Source: Eledone cirrhosa | Taxonomy: Eukaryota | Assembly (NCBI GenBank): GCA_964016885.1 | Contig: OZ024740.1 | Location: 315,580,001 to 315,644,000 of the forward strand | Direction of reading: 5' to 3' | Length of the DNA stretch: 64,000 bases | In this document: in pieces, positions 777 to 52,188 of the stretch | Layout: each line of letters starts with the position of its first letter | Position numbering within the stretch: the stretch's first letter is position 1 | The notes under the pieces: model-generated | Told to the model about the DNA's origin: nothing | Database searches by the model: none | What the model saw: the letters and a program-made list of their open reading frames with translations, nothing else | Made by a program: the position numbers and the translations under genes

Positions 777-1918
777 ATCTAGATAGTACCATAACAGTTT
801 TTCTTCAGTTGCTGCAAGTACCTGAGCCAATATTGGGGGAAATCATTGTCCAGGAAGCAACAACAATAGGTGAAAGTAAAAAATGTGATTAAAGTGAAAA
901 AAACTGAAATGTCGAAAAGAAATGAAAGTAAATTAAATTATAACACGAACGATATATCTATCAGAGTGAGCGAACTCGTGCGAATTCTGTCAATATCCTT
1001 GCATTTAAGCATGTAAGTCACGGTTTACAATAGCATGAGTGGTGTTGGGTGTTTAAGGACATGTAAATACTGTCTCAAGTGGGAGATTGTTCAGGCGAAA
1101 CATTTTGGTGCATTATTACGCAATGGAAATCACAAAGTATTCTCAGGTCTCGAATAATCGATCCCCCCCCTCCCCCCGTATATTAATTTTTGCTAATCTA
1201 TCTCCGGTGAAATGTTATTCTCAGTGGTAGCATTCTTGCAGCGATTAATTTTCTTTATACATTAAAAAAAACAAACAACAACATTATACATGACAAAAAA
1301 TTACATTACTAGAAATCTCATACGCTATAAAATAAATAGGTGGGTTGGGGTCGCAATATGTAAACTAAATGACTAATTCTGGTTTTTTTTTAAATTAACG
1401 GAGACAACCAAGAAAAATTACCGATTCCCCCATCCCCTATTATTTGGTACCCGAAAGGACATACACGTTACCGTTATGATTTAGGCTTGGTTAAAGTTAA
1501 GGTTGCCTCGTTGGGTGGTGTGTGTGAGCGGAGTGAGATAAATTCGGTGAACCAGACGTCATATTTTCATTTTCTTCAAGAGATCTGTGATATCCTCCGG
1601 TCTTCAATCAGAAACAAATGTTCTTAGTTTGAATCTAGCCGACGACTATCTCAGGACCTAATTATCCGTTGTATTCCCTTTTTAAAAGCGCCAGGGTATG
1701 ATTTGAAAGCGGCATCTTGTAGTTTAAATGTCTAAAATTAACCGAAATAAACCCTACAATAAAATCAATTATGTAAGACGATTTATTTGTTAAGGTGAAA
1801 CATATAAATTTATATAAACAAACAGCATAAACAGTAATGTCCCCCCCCCCCCTCGCCACACACAAACTTTGTTTCTTCGTAACTTTCTTAATAATACATA
1901 TTTCTAAATGGTATTTTG

Positions 1919-2234
1919 CAGGAATATGTTTTCGAGGGTCTAGATTACAATTATGCTGAAATCTAAATGAAATTTTATATATATATAAATATGTAAACTA
2001 TATATATATATATAAGGTATAAACCAACGTTTTAGGTGTCGCACGGCAAGTATTATTCGATGCGAGTCCCGGATTCTTTAGGGGGTAACCACACACAGTA
2101 AGTAAAGTACCCAATAGAACTCAAATGAAACAGTTCTAGTCCTGTAGATGTCATATATATATACATTTATATTTCTAATTTCATTTCGATTTGATCACCA
2201 TAATCGTAATTTAGACCTTAGAAAACATATTCCT
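1919..2234. repeat. Degenerate inverted repeat (MITE-like)
   Basis: 1919-1974 CAGGAATATGTTTTC...AATGAAATT is the reverse complement of 2177-2234 AATTTCATT...GAAAACATATTCCTG. Confidence 0.55.
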
Positions 2235-2737
2235 GAAATGACATTACGTTCTTGTAGACAATAAGGCATTGTTAAAACAATATCCGAGTTGTGTTTGGCC
2301 TACTGCAAGCACAAGTCGAGAGTATTCAGTAAACATATACATATATGAAAGTATTTAAAAAAAACTTAATTTTTTAAAAATGTCATCATTGACTATGGAT
2401 TTCGTTTCGAAGTCATTGAAAAATAATTTCAATTGACAAAATATTCCGTTGACCCGAGTGATGTGACCCTACTGATGTGCGGTCGATTGTCGCACTGTCT
2501 TCTTTCTCTAGCTCTGGACATATATTTTACTGCGTAGTATTTGTGAGCTTCCTCGCAATAGTTAATTGTATTTGTTATATGTATTCATATTTGTGTTTAT
2601 CAACATGTAATTTAAAATTGCGCGACTTATCTACTCTGGTTTTCAATATTTCCGATATAAAGTCAAGTTTTTATTACATTTATGTCAGATAGAAATATAT
2701 ACATATAATCAATTAATAGGAACCTTATAAATATAAT

Positions 2738-2837
2738 TGTTTCTACTTTAGGCACAAGGCCAGCAATTACTCAGTGTATTACTGGTACTTTATTTTATCG
2801 ACCCCGTAAGGATGAAAGGCAAAGTTAACCTCGGGGA
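2738..2837 (-). mobile_element. 5'-truncated SINE S1 with target-site duplication
   Basis: Reverse complement of the S1 3' half, flanked by the direct repeat AACCTTATAAATATAAT. Confidence 0.8.
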
Positions 2838-4056
2838 AACCTTATAAATATAATACACACAAATAAACAATCAGACCGAAAAATAAAAAAAATATCAATT
2901 TAACACTAAGTGCATCAATCGATCACACAACACAAGGGTTACTGAAACTTTTTGAGGCGGGTGTATGTAGCTATTTCTAGCTTCTTTGAAGGGGTTGGCT
3001 GCTATTTCGCCAAATTTATCAGTATAACGAGATATTTAGTTGTTATTTAAGTCAATGCTGGTTGATATCAGTAAATATTATGTTAAAAAATAACTACGAA
3101 CATGCTATTTATTTTAAATGACATGACTTTTATCATTTAAATTAATTAAAAAAAATATATTGAAAAATATGCATAAATTTTTGAATATCAAAGGAGGGGA
3201 TCGAAAAGTGAAATAACTGAAATTTCGAGAAGTCATTATTTTCAGAATCGTAGTAAGCGATGTTCATAACGTATTTTCCGTTGACCATTGTGGTGTGTGA
3301 CTGATAGTTGGTGGTGAAATGATAGTCTGTTTTTTCTCATGCTTTGATTATATATTTTTCTGTAACATATTTATAAGGTTCTCAGCAATAATTAATTGTA
3401 TTTATTATTTGTTTATATTTTCATGCCGGAGAATACATATTTACACTAATAAATAGAAGGACCCCCCCCCCCCACCAAACTTACACTCACATGCAGTGAA
3501 TGAGACAAATTAATAAGAAGTTCCTGATACGAGATACATAGTCAAAGAGACCCATAACTGTAATATATATAATGGAAACATTATCTTTGACAATTTTCAT
3601 TTTAAAATGTATATTTAGAAAGTTAAAAAAAAACAACAAAGAGTGGAAAAACATAATCTGTAGTTAAGCGAATATTTTAACAAGACACGGTGTCTATATT
3701 AGCAAAACTAATCTTGACTAAAAGCAAATCTACAATACGCCGACAACCTGCTAAACATTTACAACTAAAATCGCACTTAAGTTACAATTGACAGTCTTAA
3801 AAAAGTAACAAAGCATTAGATAACGTAGATCTAGATATATTATGTCTGAAAAAAAAAGGTGAGATTATCATCATTAAAACACATTTGATAACATGTCTGT
3901 TAAGGCATATAAAAATTGCTATCAAAAAGTATTAAAAAAATATTACAAAACATGATTCGGATGTAAAATTATGTAAACGAAAATAAACTAAAATTACTTT
4001 TTGCCAAAAACCCTTAATAAAATGTATTTCAAATGGCTAAAACTTTCTTCAATACA

Positions 4057-4147
4057 CCAATCAGATTCTGTTATATATAAATGTTAAGGTGCGTGCTGGG
4101 CGTCGAGTATAAAAAGCTGTTCCAAGTAAACTCGGCCTCTACTCATT
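4057..4147 (+). promoter_or_regulatory. Putative AHCY core promoter (CCAAT box, TATA box, initiator-like TCATT)
   Basis: CCAAT at 4057-4061, TATAAAAA at 4108-4115 and TCATT at 4143-4147, about 35 bp downstream of the TATA start and about 70 bp upstream of the AHCY ATG. Confidence 0.6.
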
Positions 4148-4212
4148 AAAACTGCCTATCAGATACAGAACGTCATTTTACTTTGTAAACCTCGCACTTT
4201 CATATCAACAGA

Positions 4213-4240
4213 ATGGCAAGCAAACCTCCTTACAAAGTTG
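4213..4240 (+). CDS. AHCY: Adenosylhomocysteinase exon 1 (MASKPPYKV)
   Basis: ATG at 4213, donor G|GTAAGT at 4241, phase 1; the peptide matches the SAHH N-terminal PYKVAD motif when joined to exon 2. Confidence 0.93.
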
Positions 4241-6251
4241 GTAAGTATTCGTACTAATGGTAATTGTTTTAGTTAACTTTTCATCAACTTTCGTTTATAA
4301 ATTATTTTTTATGTAGTATTCAGTTCTTCTTTCGATATTTACTGTCGTTCTTTCATTCTCTTCCTCCCCATCTCTCATTTTCTTTTGACGCCGGCTACCG
4401 GTGATATTTTGATAACTGATTGTTACTGAATAGTTTAGTTAATTTAATGTTTTGATATAGTAAAAATTAAAGTTGGTGAAATTAAAAAGAAATATCTATG
4501 TGGTCGTTCGATAAGGCTAAAAATAGCAGCTAAATCTCTCAAATTATATATTAAGGAAGAACATATACAATGCATTCCTAGATATACAAAACGCCGATTG
4601 TCACAACTAGAACGTTTTATTACAAATCTGACCCTGACCTAAACAATACTTCGGATTGATATGAACATTTGCTCCTTTTGTCTTAGTATATTTTCATGTG
4701 ATAATGTCACATTTTTGTTTGATCGAAAGCCCTTTTTTGTACAGTTCGAGAGAAATATTTGATCGGTGAAATAGACCAGCATATTTTACTGCTATTAATT
4801 TTATATCGTCAGAAAGTTAACAGTAGAAAAAACAGCCAAACACATCTTAAATCGTTTAATTGCAATCAAATGCCCCTCAGATCGCCCCCTATTGTCATTT
4901 AAAAAAAAGGACACTGAATAACTTAGTCTTAAACACACTGCCAGAAAACAAGAAGGGTTAATTGTAGCTGGAATGTATTTGATCATATTTTACTCAATAA
5001 GGGATGACTTAAGGTTAAATAAATATGGTCCTTTATTGCTTAACATGCATAGCATTAGAACGAGAGAGAGATAGCTGACAGTTCACCCAACATCATATTC
5101 ATTGCATCTGTCAAACTTACCTAGCCCTCCCAATCCAGATTCTAAATTGGGATTTCAAAGTGAATAAAATAATAAAATAAAGGCTATGAATCACTAAAAT
5201 CAACCCCCCCCCCCCCATAATAATAGTAAAAGAGGAGTAAAGCCTTTGATCATTGCAATCTGTGCGTCCTATTGTTGCTATTGAAAACTAGTTTGAACGT
5301 CGGCAAATAAAACTTGATTTAGTTTTAATATTTGTAACAATAAATGAATATCTGAAATATTAGAAATCAAGATTTAACAAACTAATCTATGGATCGTTAA
5401 AGTGTTGGTTAAAATGTCATGTTGGGAGGAGGGGCCACACACAGATGTACACATATAAATCACACGCATACACATATGTGTTAGGAAGGGCATCCAGCCG
5501 AATTACAGTTGATTGAGCAAGGTATGACGTGGCCAACTAGCCAGACATGGCTCATAACGTGGACGACCCGTCTGACCAATGCAAACGGAAAAACACGTTA
5601 AACGATGGTGATGATGATTTTCCATGCTAGTATGGCATTATAGACCAAGACTACTTAATCAGACCCGGTAACTTTGTAGACCTGCTGGAGACCATACCTT
5701 GGTTACATACGTTATGCCCTTCCAAGTTACTGTAACCAGCTTTAGTGAAGCTGTCATGTCCTTAGCACAACTGAAGAGTCTTTTCAATCCTTTTGTGACA
5801 TGGTTTCCATGACTGGATGCCCTTAATACCAACTCTTACATATCGTACTGGATGCATTTTGTCATGGTACAGTACTAAAGAGGTTATTTAGTTGTTGACT
5901 GAAGAACCCCCCTCTCCTACCCTATGATGTTACCAATTAGATATCAACAAATTTCATAGAGAATACAGCGTGCATTTTATAATGCACCAACACTTTGGAA
6001 GTTGCCTTGTTCCAATGTAAACCTGTTTGAGAATAAGAGGAGAGTGATGAGGTGATGGAAAGGAAGTAATGTAGGAGAGAGTGGATGTTCACAGGGATGA
6101 TTAGAATAGTAATAAAGAGTGGATGATACTTGATTTCAGCACAGCATGTGGGGTAGAAGGGTAAAAAAATGTTCCAGGTAATACTGTAGGAATGGATGGA
6201 GAGGGGGTGTTAATAGGAGCATATTGGGTGTCATGCTTATATTGGTTGGTC

Positions 6252-44890: not shown

Positions 44891-45244
44891 TAATAAATTG
44901 AAGTGAAAGCAACTGGTGCGTGTGTTTCTTATTGGCAACATGACCCTCCCAAAGTATAACAATATCGATTTCAACACACGTTTTCAGATAAAGAATCTTG
45001 CTAAACAAATTCAGAAACGAAATATATATATATATATATATATTTCTTTAGGTTTGTTGGTTCACCACTGGATAGAACTGGTCATTCCGTATGGTCAATC
45101 CTGGTGTAATATTGTGAAGAGTACTCAACGCAGTGCAGTTCACCCATCTTCGTTTGTGTAGTTGGTGGTGCGAATACGGAGTTAATTATAAATGAAATAA
45201 AATAACAGGAGGCTGGACTGGTGTAAATCCTTGAAAGGTTTATT

Positions 45245-45302
45245 ATACTATGATCATTTCAATGACCAGGTTCCATATGAATCCGGTGATATCATCAGGT
45301 AT
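45245..45302 (-). ncRNA. Type I hammerhead-like motif (left arm, mirror copy)
   Basis: Reverse complement of 45433-45490 with one substitution in stem II. Confidence 0.62.
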
Positions 45303-45432
45303 TGGAATATAACAAAGGAATATGTAAAAAAACCATGGGTCCGAAAAATCAGAGACAGAGAGGACGACTGACCAACTAGCTTCTCAGTCAGCTGCCCTCA
45401 AAGTTTTTGACATATTCCTTTGTTATATTCCA

Positions 45433-45490
45433 ATACCTGATGATATCACCGGATTCATATGGAACCCGGTCATTGAAATGATCATAGTAT
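45433..45490 (+). ncRNA. Type I hammerhead-like motif (right arm)
   Basis: ATAC-CTGATGA-TATCACCGG..CCGGTCATT-GAAA-TGATCA-TA-GTAT; palindromic stem III ATGATCAT; U-U instead of R-Y at the base of stem II. Confidence 0.65.
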
Positions 45491-45558
45491 AATAAACCTT
45501 TCAAGGATTTACACCAGTCCAGCCTCCTGTTATTTTATTTCATTTATATATATATATA

Positions 45559-48991: not shown

Positions 48992-49219
48992 TATAATGTG
49001 GAAAGTGATATAAGGCTAAACAAGGAAAAATGGATGGTAAGATAAAGGCAATGAAAAAGTTAGTTACCTGGTAATCTTTTGGGTTTTTTTGTTGTTTCTT
49101 TCGTCCTATTTCAGGATTTGTGTTACATATATCACTTAACTAACGTTTTCGTTACCTTCATTTTACCGTCTATTTTGCATTGTTTTAGCCTTCTTACATA
49201 TATCACTTTCCACATTATA
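48992..49219. repeat. Degenerate fold-back palindrome, about 75-83 bp arms, 70 bp spacer
   Basis: TATAATGTGGAAAGTGATATA...GTTAGTTA (48992-49066) versus TAACTAAC...TATATCACTTTCCACATTATA (49137-49219). Confidence 0.8.
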
Positions 49220-49406
49220 TATTATATGCAATGTTTCAAGTAAACTACAACATTTTATTTTATATATATATATATATACTTAGGGTAAACATTGATGCAA
49301 TTCAAATCAAGCACTCAACGTACTTATTCCACATAGGAGTGACGGAGTAAATATCGAATAAGGAAAAGCGAAGTAGTTTCAGATGTTCAAGTCCTTTAAT
49401 AATAAT

Positions 49407-49480
49407 GCTGCGATATATATTTCAATGGCGAAAGTGGCCACACTGTTCTGTGGGCCAGTCTCGCGACATCGTCAGACAGC
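49407..49480 (-). ncRNA. Type I hammerhead-like motif (left arm of giant palindrome)
   Basis: Minus strand: GCTGT-CTGACGA-long stem II-GAAA-TATATA-TC-GCAGC. Confidence 0.68.
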
Positions 49481-50580
49481 TTGTTACATAAAAAGGTTAT
49501 GTTTCCGAGGCAATCCAAATTGAATCGACATGGGAACGGACGAAGTATGTGCCTTTGGGTTTTTCATCCGTTCCCCTGTGAGTACCAATTCACCCCCACT
49601 GGTCTGCGCAGGCGCAGGTCCAGGGGGAAGTTGACCATTAGCTACCGCAGATTTAAATGAAATTCGCTTAGTCAGTTCCTTCTCTGAGCCAGACAATGAC
49701 CCATTCAAGCCTGTACCATAGTTTACTGCTACCCATCCCGTCTGTGGCAGTCAGTCGAAAGCCAGTGGAGATGGGAGAGTGTTAGTATTTACAGGTCTCT
49801 TTACTACCTCTCACAATCATGGACAGTATAACTGACCATCAACCCCTAAGAGGATATATTTAATTCTATGTATCATAGTTTCATATTGGAAGTTATAAGT
49901 GAAATTAGAACTAAAAATTACAATTTAAAATCGAAAATCCTAAATCAAGTATCAGAAATTATAAATTAAAAAATTAACAATTAGAAATTAAACAAAGATT
50001 TTTCAAGATTCTCATTTGAAAAATCTTGAAAGATTTTTCCGGATTCTCACTTGAAAAATCTTTAATTGTTTAATTTCTAATTGTTAATTTTTTAATTTAT
50101 AATTTCTGATACTTGATTTAGGATTTTCGATTTTAAATTGTAATTTTTAGTTCTCATTTCACTTATAACTTCCAATATGAAACTATGATACATAGAATTA
50201 AATATATCCTCTTAGGGGTTGATGGTCAGTTATACTGTCCATGATTGTGAGAGGTAGTAAAGAGACCTGTAAATACTAACACTCTCCCATCCCCACTGGC
50301 TTTCGGCTGACTGCCACAGACGGGATGGGTAGCAGTAAACTATGGTACAGGCTTGAATGGGTCATTGTCTGGCTGAGAGAGGGAACTGACTAAGTGAATT
50401 TCATTTAAATCTGCAGTAGCTAATGGTCAACTTCCCCCTGGACCTGCGCCTGCGCAGACCAGTGGGGGTGAATTGGTACTCACAGGGGAACGGATGAAGA
50501 ACCCAAAGGCACATATTTCGTCCGTTCCCATGTCGATTCAATTTGGATTGCCTCGGAAACATAACCTTATTATGTAACAA

Positions 50581-50654
50581 GCTGTCTGACGATGTCGCGA
50601 GACTGGCCCACATAACAGTGTGGTCACTTTCGCCATTGAAATATATATCACAGC
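50581..50654 (+). ncRNA. Type I hammerhead-like motif (right arm of giant palindrome)
   Basis: GCTGT-CTGACGA-TGTCGCGAGACTGGCCCACA..TGTGGTCACTTTCGCCATT-GAAA-TATATA-TC-ACAGC; perfect 5 bp stem I, AUC triplet, self-complementary stem III. Confidence 0.72.
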
Positions 50655-50778
50655 ATTATTATTAAAGGACTTGAACATCTGAAACTACTTCGCTTTTCCT
50701 TATTCTATCAGACCTGTATTAGCTGGCAGGAGGTCATATATTTTATCGTTCCTGGGTCGTTTAGCCCTAGGAAAGGAA

Positions 50779-50866
50779 AATGCTTCTCTGATGAGCTTTG
50801 GTTTTTCATCAGATATCTATCGGATTCTGGGGTTTTACAAAGCGAAACTGATCAGTAAGGGCCATT
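50779..50866 (+). ncRNA. Type I hammerhead ribozyme with canonical core
   Basis: AATGCTTCT-CTGATGA-GCTTTG[37 nt]CAAAGC-GAAA-CTGATCAG-TA-AGGGCCATT; G-C base of stem II, palindromic stem III ACTGATCAGT, GUA triplet (cut after 50857). Confidence 0.82.
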
Positions 50867-50954
50867 AGAAGAGGTAAATATTTATATTATATTTTTTAAT
50901 TTATTTTTAAAAATTGGTTGAATTTTACTTGTTCTGCTTATCTTAATATATATA

Positions 50955-52188
50955 TCTATGGTAGAACTAGAGAATAAATTCCAAACCTGGAAGCAGGGAC
51001 TAGAGAGAAAGGGCCTCAAAGTCAACATGACAAAGACTAAGGTCCTTGTAAGTAGACGAGAAAACAGAACCCAGATCCCCTCAGGGAAATGGCCTTGCTC
51101 AGTATGTAGGAAAGGTGTAGGTAGAAACTCCATTCTCTGCCCCAAATGCAAACAATGGGTACACAAGAGATGTAGCGGGATCTCAGGAAGCTTAATTAAG
51201 AATGTAGGATTCACATGCAGCAGCTGTGCTGAAACAGCAAGCAAACAGCCACAGGAAACAAGTACCACCAATCTCTGGGAGGGCCCTGTAGAAACAGTAG
51301 ACAGCTTCTGCTACCTAGGTGACCGAATTAGCAACGGAGGTGGGTGCTCAGAAAGTACAATAACTAGGGTAAGAACGGGATGGAAGAAGTTTAGGGAACT
51401 ACTACCACTGCTAGCTGCAAAAGGCTTCTCCCTCAGAATGAAAGGCAGACTGTATGATGCGTGTATCCGAACAGCGATGTTGCATGGTAGTGAGACCTGG
51501 GCGCTGAAGGTGGAAGACTTACGTAGATTAGAGAGAAACGAAGCCTGCATGCTCCGATGGATGTGTAACAGTAATATACGTGAACGACAAAGCATAAAGG
51601 AATTGAGAGAGAGACTGAGCATAAGAGGAATCAAATGCTGCGTGCAGGAGAGGCGGTTACGCTGGTATGGACATGTGATGCGTATGAAGGATGACAGCTG
51701 CATAAAAAGGTGCAGAGCACTAGAAGTTGATGGAAACCGCGGAGTGGGGAGACCCAAGATGACTTGGGATGAGGTGATAAAAGCCGACCTTACCCAACTA
51801 CACCTCTCAAAGTCAATGACACACGACCGTGACTTCTGGCGTCACGCAGTAATACAGGGTACCCGACCTCCCATGGGTACATGCTGAAGCATATAAACAA
51901 TATGCCCCCCCCCCTCCACCGCAAGGTGGCCGTGGAGGTGCCACGGCAAAAAAGCACCCAGCCCACACTGTAAAGTGGACGTGTAGGCGCCACGAAAAAG
52001 CACCCAGCACTCACTGTAAATGAGGTTGGTGTTAGGAAGGGCATCCAGCTGTAGAAATCAAGCCAGATCAGTTCCTGTATGAGCAAGGCATGGTCAGCCG
52101 ACCAGACACTGCCCACAACAGGACAACCCGTCTAACCCATGCTAGCGTGGAAGAACGGACGTAAAACGGTGATGATGATGATGATGAT
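50955..52188 (+). mobile_element. RTE LINE family B, 5'-truncated
   Basis: ORF 50958-51887 (PHD-like finger, C-terminal domain), full 3' UTR and (GAT)n tail; closely matches 39653-40890 in the opposite orientation. Confidence 0.95.

Follow-up and report, generated by a model that had tools for sequence, protein, structure and literature searches.

A hammerhead-bearing palindrome in Eledone cirrhosa, probably formed by two head-to-head copies of a non-coding relative of Penelope-like elements

Introduction

Penelope-like elements (PLEs) leave inverted, truncated copies with a tail on one side only and show a bias towards (TA)n targets (Craig et al. 2021, PMC8557442), and the formation of their tandem and inverted structures is named as an open problem in the same paper. 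Inverted, 5'-truncated PLE copies with a one-sided tail were also described by Arkhipova et al. (2013, PMC3846280), who proposed self-priming for rotifer PLEs, including self-priming that involves antisense RNA. A PLE protein has been reported to cut and extend both strands of AT-rich DNA; reverse transcription began at two positions inside the RNA, one on either side of the tail, and a dimer was predicted (Frangieh et al. 2024, PMC11167929). For the Anolis PLE of that study, hammerhead cleavage was dispensable for insertion and the start sites were alike between strands in vitro, and the steps after first-strand synthesis were left unvalidated. Animal retrozymes, in turn, have been described as non-autonomous relatives of PLEs (Cervera & de la Pena 2020, PMC7229834; Li, Clavereau & Pollet 2026, 10.64898/2026.07.22.740005).

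The locus analysed here lies in a 64-kb stretch of the Eledone cirrhosa genome, which is referred to as the window throughout. It belongs to a known class of element and is unremarkable in that genome. What makes it striking, a long hairpin with an elaborate centre and with hammerheads on both strands, was produced incidentally by inversion and by a second insertion.

Results

Architecture of the locus

The inverted arms reported in the initial annotation were recovered at 49353-49995 and 50066-50708, each 643 nt long, 98% complementary and separated by a spacer of 70 nt, and they constitute the second-longest inverted repeat in the window. When aligned, the two arms differ by 13 internal substitutions and, next to the apex, by a single 4-nt gap. 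The longest stop-free frame within the 1.67-kb unit is 88 aa, in keeping with the earlier statement that it has no convincing ORF, and the (TA)n tracts said to flank the unit are present at both ends. The unit had been read as a single element, but two unrelated families, designated A and B, make it up; its features, and the motifs of a third family nearby, are as follows.

49261..49278, no strand: left (TA)n target tract; across sites, family 3' ends abut TA-type repeats
49279..49355, minus: 77-nt tail of family A, on the left arm only, from site comparison
49356..50007, minus: left arm; family A copy, 5'-truncated, covering reference A689 up to the tail and interrupted by a 4-nt gap near the apex
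49407..49480, minus: family A type I hammerhead motif with palindromic stem III, long stem II and a U-U first pair; cleavage predicted
49994..50062, no strand: two-eared junction, at this locus only, of alternating minus-sense and plus-sense pieces of adjacent family sequence
50038..50705, plus: right arm, a 5'-truncated family A copy (A677-A1328) with the tail-less end
50581..50654, plus: second copy of the family A hammerhead motif, with the predicted cut after C50649
50706..50707, no strand: TA remnant between families A and B
50708..50946, plus: family B copy, 5'-truncated, tail-less and unrelated to A
about 50784..50861, plus: putative family B type I hammerhead motif, from the descriptor
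50947..50955, no strand: right (TA)n tract
45298 (minus) and 45437 (plus): hammerhead motifs of a third family, from the descriptor

The right (TA)n tract is followed by a long ORF of another repeat, of which the window contains several copies. An older inverted pair (48992-49066 and 49137-49219, 80% identical) lies close by on the left side of the element and has no match in the other loci examined.

Hammerhead motifs

Hammerheads were sought with a descriptor that specified the core CUGAnGA...GAAA, a stem I of at least 4 bp, a fully palindromic stem III and an in-register stem II. We loosened an initial, stricter descriptor, which had caught only the third motif, that of family B; family A had been missed because U-U is its first stem II pair. 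In its relaxed form the descriptor detects the three motifs claimed for the element, whereas 0 of 1000 dinucleotide shuffles of the element gave any, and it detects five motifs in the whole window against none in 30 window shuffles. The Infernal search with Rfam models that had been suggested as a check returned no hammerhead, either at gathering score across the whole window or at E<=10 in 49200-51000. Hammerheads are present on both strands, as first described, but the two in the arms are one family A hammerhead duplicated by inversion; likewise, a further hammerhead does follow the right arm, but it belongs to the unrelated family B.

In a motif alignment of 58 distinct family A copies, 94.5% of cells pair, and the core is invariant by construction, the copies having been picked by the core pattern. 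Three of the 23 pairs change on both sides, a figure reached by 143 of 500 shuffles, and two of the three are inherited subfamily changes; pairing and covariation together lend the family A hammerhead modest support. A coding PLE of this genome likewise has U-U as the first stem II pair of its hammerhead, and relatives with the stems I and III of family A often carry G-C at this position. Genome-wide, the hammerhead pattern gives 311 matches against 0 in the control, and 20 loci taken from this search comprise five older members of family A, the rest belonging to other families. Many more type I hammerhead families with a palindromic stem III were seen among 130 loci scanned (L001-L130). The third family listed above forms a smaller head-to-head palindrome with TA tracts on both sides at 45187-45548 of the window, 4 kb away, and has related copies in several other loci examined.

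Families A and B

Family A is a dispersed, non-coding repeat with a monomer of 1,318 nt, 38% GC, one type I hammerhead and partial tandems. The 1,318-nt period was measured from natural tandem copies, and the longest stop-free frame in one natural monomer is 85 aa. An arm query spanning the apex gave at least 859 first-look candidates and a query from the 3' part of the arm, which contained tail sequence, gave at least 2,122, the best 40 being scored in each case; all family A counts are lower bounds, and the copies studied are top-scoring matches rather than a random sample. Family A ends at one of two fixed 3' positions, separated by 77 nt; each adjoins TA or TC repeats, and both are visible as loose ends in public sequencing runs. 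Partial tandems are present at several sites (for example C3:194028045, C7:58264329 and C3:152769831), and where complete monomers stand in tandem the tail leads into the next non-coding monomer. In such tandem copies the 77-nt tail is the first 77 nt past the tail-less end. The non-coding layout is unchanged in older subfamilies of 73-86% identity, and tblastn with two PLE proteins gave no match in the family A loci among L001-L095. Depth in public contigs climbs steeply over the last 200 nt of family A, as 5' truncation would produce.

One subfamily carries, just after hammerhead stem I, a piece of about 180 bp from another repeat of the window (L126:7240-7420; also in L007, L018, L019, L025 and L167), which has spread together with it and which we take to be SINE-like. 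Literature searches listed no published family or programmed apex matching family A. Family A is on this comparison probably an unlisted family of a known kind, and it may already be catalogued in Repbase, in Dfam or in paper supplements.

Family B has a monomer of about 485 nt, a tail of about 107 nt and inversions of its own, with at least 2,260 candidates, and shows no real sequence similarity to family A. It is present at one of 68 family A sites, namely this locus, and family A is present at none of 14 other family B loci. The simplest reading is that family B is a later insertion in the right-hand TA tract; joining by a template jump in the same event as family A is possible. DIRS-type split ends were considered for the right extension and dropped, since that extension is the separate family B. 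At one family B site (L032), each of the two arms carries a tail. A tandem hammerhead repeat of about 460 bp at L129:5500-6420 is 70-74% like family B, and its stem I matches that of family A.

Inversions across family A sites

A first set of 49 independent family A sites contains 31 head-to-head junctions, which lie between A6 and A1378. In an enlarged set of 68 independent sites, the head-to-head arrangement is present in 40 and the tail-to-tail arrangement in none. All 26 inversions with both ends classed have one tailed and one tail-less end, the remaining 14 of the 40 being cut, interrupted or unclassed at an end, and the longer arm is the tailed one in 16 and the tail-less one in 10. The inverted insertions sit in TA-type repeats, and junctions other than that of the window contain 6-26 nt of templated filler or 2-12 nt of microhomology. 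Inversion of the copies at random positions had been named beforehand as the outcome that would count against a dedicated fold-back family, and the scatter of the 31 junctions is largely of that kind.

Five of the 31 junctions are near-symmetric (within 30 nt), a number reached by 349 of 5,000 permutations, and 26 are asymmetric. Break points are concentrated at A1146-1155 (matched in 0 of 5,000 simulations) and at A324-334 (37 of 5,000). The first of these hot spots corresponds to about 50526-50535 of the window, where a long predicted hairpin has its 3' foot, and might mark a stall site of the reverse transcriptase. Two loci, L003 and L005/L090 (G000:C28:62445010+ and G000:C4:334402659+), share an identical junction, A1154/A328, with 8 nt of microhomology and with the tail on opposite arms, which reflects either a recurrent break or a re-mobilised inverted unit.

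The arms of the window locus were compared with 105 matches from 48 other sites. The dozen substitutions that had been cited against a read chimera number 13, of which 7 are left-arm and 6 are right-arm departures from the commonest letter of the column, each rare elsewhere (0-2 of 45-77 covering matches). Seven minority states are common to both arms, and one of them occurs in 0 of 57 matches. To judge from these alignments, the arms were alike at insertion and then aged separately, which argues for one template and against an artefact.

The two-eared apex

The spacer consists of a 35-nt unit in 2.0 copies, each self-complementary at its ends. This part of the initial description stands, but the two ears folded from it do not appear in the lowest-energy fold of the spacer (ViennaRNA), where the units are nested in one stem. 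The apex can be parsed into four family pieces, minus-sense, plus-sense, minus-sense and plus-sense in turn, all matching sequence within 45 nt of the break, and it requires a template that extends to A677, a sequence that only the right arm holds. On this parse, the two-eared centre is likely to be a joining scar templated from flanking family sequence.

A search for the ear pattern in 2,995,841,428 bases matched this locus and one other place (control 1+1), the latter being L201 (G000:C1:310981820-310981854), which has a different loop that is partly palindromic. The ear motif is at no other family A site in these 3.0 Gb. Among the best 40 scored matches, the junction query was fully covered at this locus only, and all other matches to the apex-spanning query start at window position 50038, lack a hairpin and extend upstream through sequence common to the family. 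At one further site the inversion falls no more than 25 nt from the window apex, and the break lies within A670-715 in five of the 31 junctions; clustering at the window's own A674-714 is not significant, with 1,413 of 5,000 uniform simulations giving as much. Of 10 public runs listed, none of them RNA, four were compared with 49960-50945, and their short contigs and reduced-representation reads include both 3' ends, with no listed piece across the apex.

Penelope-like enzymes and the search for a partner

The genome contains at least 10,595 GIY-YIG candidates, of which the best 150 were scored, and long ORFs that combine reverse transcriptase (RT) and GIY-YIG domains are present. At L130:3260-6525 (G000:C1:97884000+), the 3' fragment of a coding PLE forms a 3.3-kb palindrome that is 99.7% self-complementary, with head-to-head arms of about 1.6 kb, a hammerhead in each arm, a tail on one arm only and TA ends. 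Family A itself lacks an RT or GIY-YIG ORF and so is not an autonomous PLE. The initial annotation had asked whether a PLE ORF adjoins longer copies: 54 distinct GIY-YIG loci, out of the at least 10,595 candidates, include no autonomous partner with the end of family A, but PLEs do occur as neighbours across TA tracts. A search with the 5' part of the monomer for a partner sharing family A as its pLTR was followed up at 30 loci, all of them family A, and the genome-wide hammerhead pattern likewise led to no partner. PLE protein matches were present in 4 of 50 further loci, and the one of these that was examined along its whole length proved to be a neighbour, separated by a TA tract, rather than a partner; L115/L126 and L136 were rejected as partners on the same grounds. 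L126 also contains, at 1508-4930, an open frame of 1,141 aa, presumably that of a non-LTR retrotransposon with a restriction-like endonuclease.

Discussion

Proposed origin and alternative explanations

Family A is very likely a retrozyme-type, non-autonomous derivative of PLEs, and the earlier view of a non-autonomous, hammerhead-bearing, PLE-related retroelement inserting in (TA)n is retained. The hairpin consists of two truncated family A copies that stand head to head in a TA tract and were probably inserted in trans by a PLE reverse transcriptase-endonuclease. For such an insertion, tandem copies would be transcribed into multimeric RNA, or a circle would be produced by hammerhead cleavage, and the GIY-YIG endonuclease would nick both strands of a (TA)n tract. 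Each 3'-OH would then prime reverse transcription on one RNA, the far start site giving the tailed end and the near start site the tail-less end. At this locus both cDNAs would have stopped no more than 12 nt apart and been joined by repeated short template switches, which would have built the two ears, and family B would have entered the right-hand TA tract later. A multimeric or circular template is needed because both arms repeat one 3' sequence. The rule of one tail and one tail-less end, the lack of tail-to-tail pairs and the single template might all reflect a dimeric RT-endonuclease that primes both strands at two start sites of one multimeric or circular RNA, with a monomer larger than those described in PMC7229834 and 10.64898/2026.07.22.740005; we regard this fuller account as evenly balanced between right and wrong. 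The dispensable hammerhead of the Anolis PLE, and its start sites alike between strands in vitro, mean that the RNA-processing and strand-specific-start steps go beyond the results given in PMC11167929, and the 77-nt tail of family A, against 30-40 bp published for PLEs, also speaks against the model, as do the family B site with two tails (L032), the lack of an autonomous partner among 54 GIY-YIG loci, the lack of Rfam hits and the modest covariation.

The main alternative leaves the family and the enzymes unchanged and differs in the priming: one cDNA, or antisense RNA, would snap back at a chance microhomology and be copied back. This has a precedent in the self-priming proposed for rotifer PLEs (PMC3846280) and would derive both arms from one template, as well as the ears as small fold-backs and the five near-symmetric junctions. 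Near-symmetry is not clearly enriched among the permutations, however, and most junctions are asymmetric; moreover, either arm may be the longer, so a single primary cDNA folding back fits poorly, and the left arm lacks the sequence that the apex had to copy. Snap-back is thus an unlikely though serious candidate, and two-ended priming is moderately favoured over it. Much less probable is that family A is merely the pLTR or 3' UTR of an autonomous PLE, with the arms as its truncated ends. The climb in depth over the last 200 nt would suit that reading, frog retrozymes share sequence with pLTRs (10.64898/2026.07.22.740005), and the partner search covered 54 GIY-YIG loci only; yet complete monomers stand in tandem with the tail running into the next non-coding monomer, the older subfamilies keep the same layout, and the tblastn searches of family A loci were empty.

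The initial annotation had favoured an undescribed fold-back family whose apical hairpin primes synthesis, the two-eared hairpin serving as a programmed primer or terminus in the manner of parvoviruses. Although the apex is self-complementary, one site inverts close by and five junctions break in A670-715, that proposal is refuted within this assembly and we give it next to no credence. The ears recur at no other family A site, other copies run through the apex position unbroken and free of any hairpin and invert at scattered points, the junction query is whole only here among its best 40 scored matches, and the local cluster of breaks is readily matched by uniform simulation. An assembly or read-chimera artefact, to which the lack of a listed piece across the apex in short contigs and reduced-representation reads might point, is just as hard to credit; the 7:6 split of arm differences resembles independent ageing, the outer ends differ according to the tail rule of the family, and 39 other sites share the architecture.

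The value of the locus is indirect. Family A is young, abundant and non-coding, with two sharply defined 3' ends, and counts of its inversions could decide between twin priming and snap-back; it is also small enough to serve as a substrate when PLE integration is assayed in vitro. If true, the reading with two start sites makes family A a large natural experiment on PLE integration. For repeat annotation, caution is warranted, as inversion can create ear-shaped centres and place hammerheads on both strands.

Comparison with known systems

In LINE-1 twin priming and at polymerase-theta junctions, two cDNAs are made on opposite target strands and joined by microhomology, with short templated filler. 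The arms at this locus differ from those of LINE-1 twin priming in that both repeat one 3' sequence, and there is no poly(A). Parvovirus and AAV termini and fold-back DNA transposons have a long stem, and their two-eared centre is alike in outline only: the apex of the present hairpin is unconserved, its outer ends are unequal, the copies are 5'-truncated and no Rep or transposase is associated with them.

Family A resembles non-LTR retrozymes, as these are described in PMC7229834 and 10.64898/2026.07.22.740005, in being non-coding and low in GC, in having one type I hammerhead per monomer, in occurring as monomers and tandem copies and in co-occurring with PLEs. Its 1,318-nt monomer exceeds the 150-450 bp of PMC7229834 and the 51-972 bp of 10.64898/2026.07.22.740005, but the latter range is descriptive and comes from a search with a 1,000-bp period cap, so the size of family A is an extension of it rather than a ground for exclusion; the family B monomer of about 485 nt falls inside that range. 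The sampled family A copies are, unlike those of retrozymes, mostly truncated, inverted or short partial tandems, and the word 'inverted' is absent from the passages of PMC7229834 consulted. Family A also differs from the endonuclease-positive PLEs (Penelope/Poseidon, Neptune and Naiad), as far as these are characterized in the sources cited above, in lacking an RT or GIY-YIG ORF and in its tail of 77 rather than 30-40 nt. With these elements it shares 5' truncation, partial tandems, a head-to-head inverted truncated copy, an optional tail at one end, a hammerhead near the 3' end and AT-rich or microsatellite targets.
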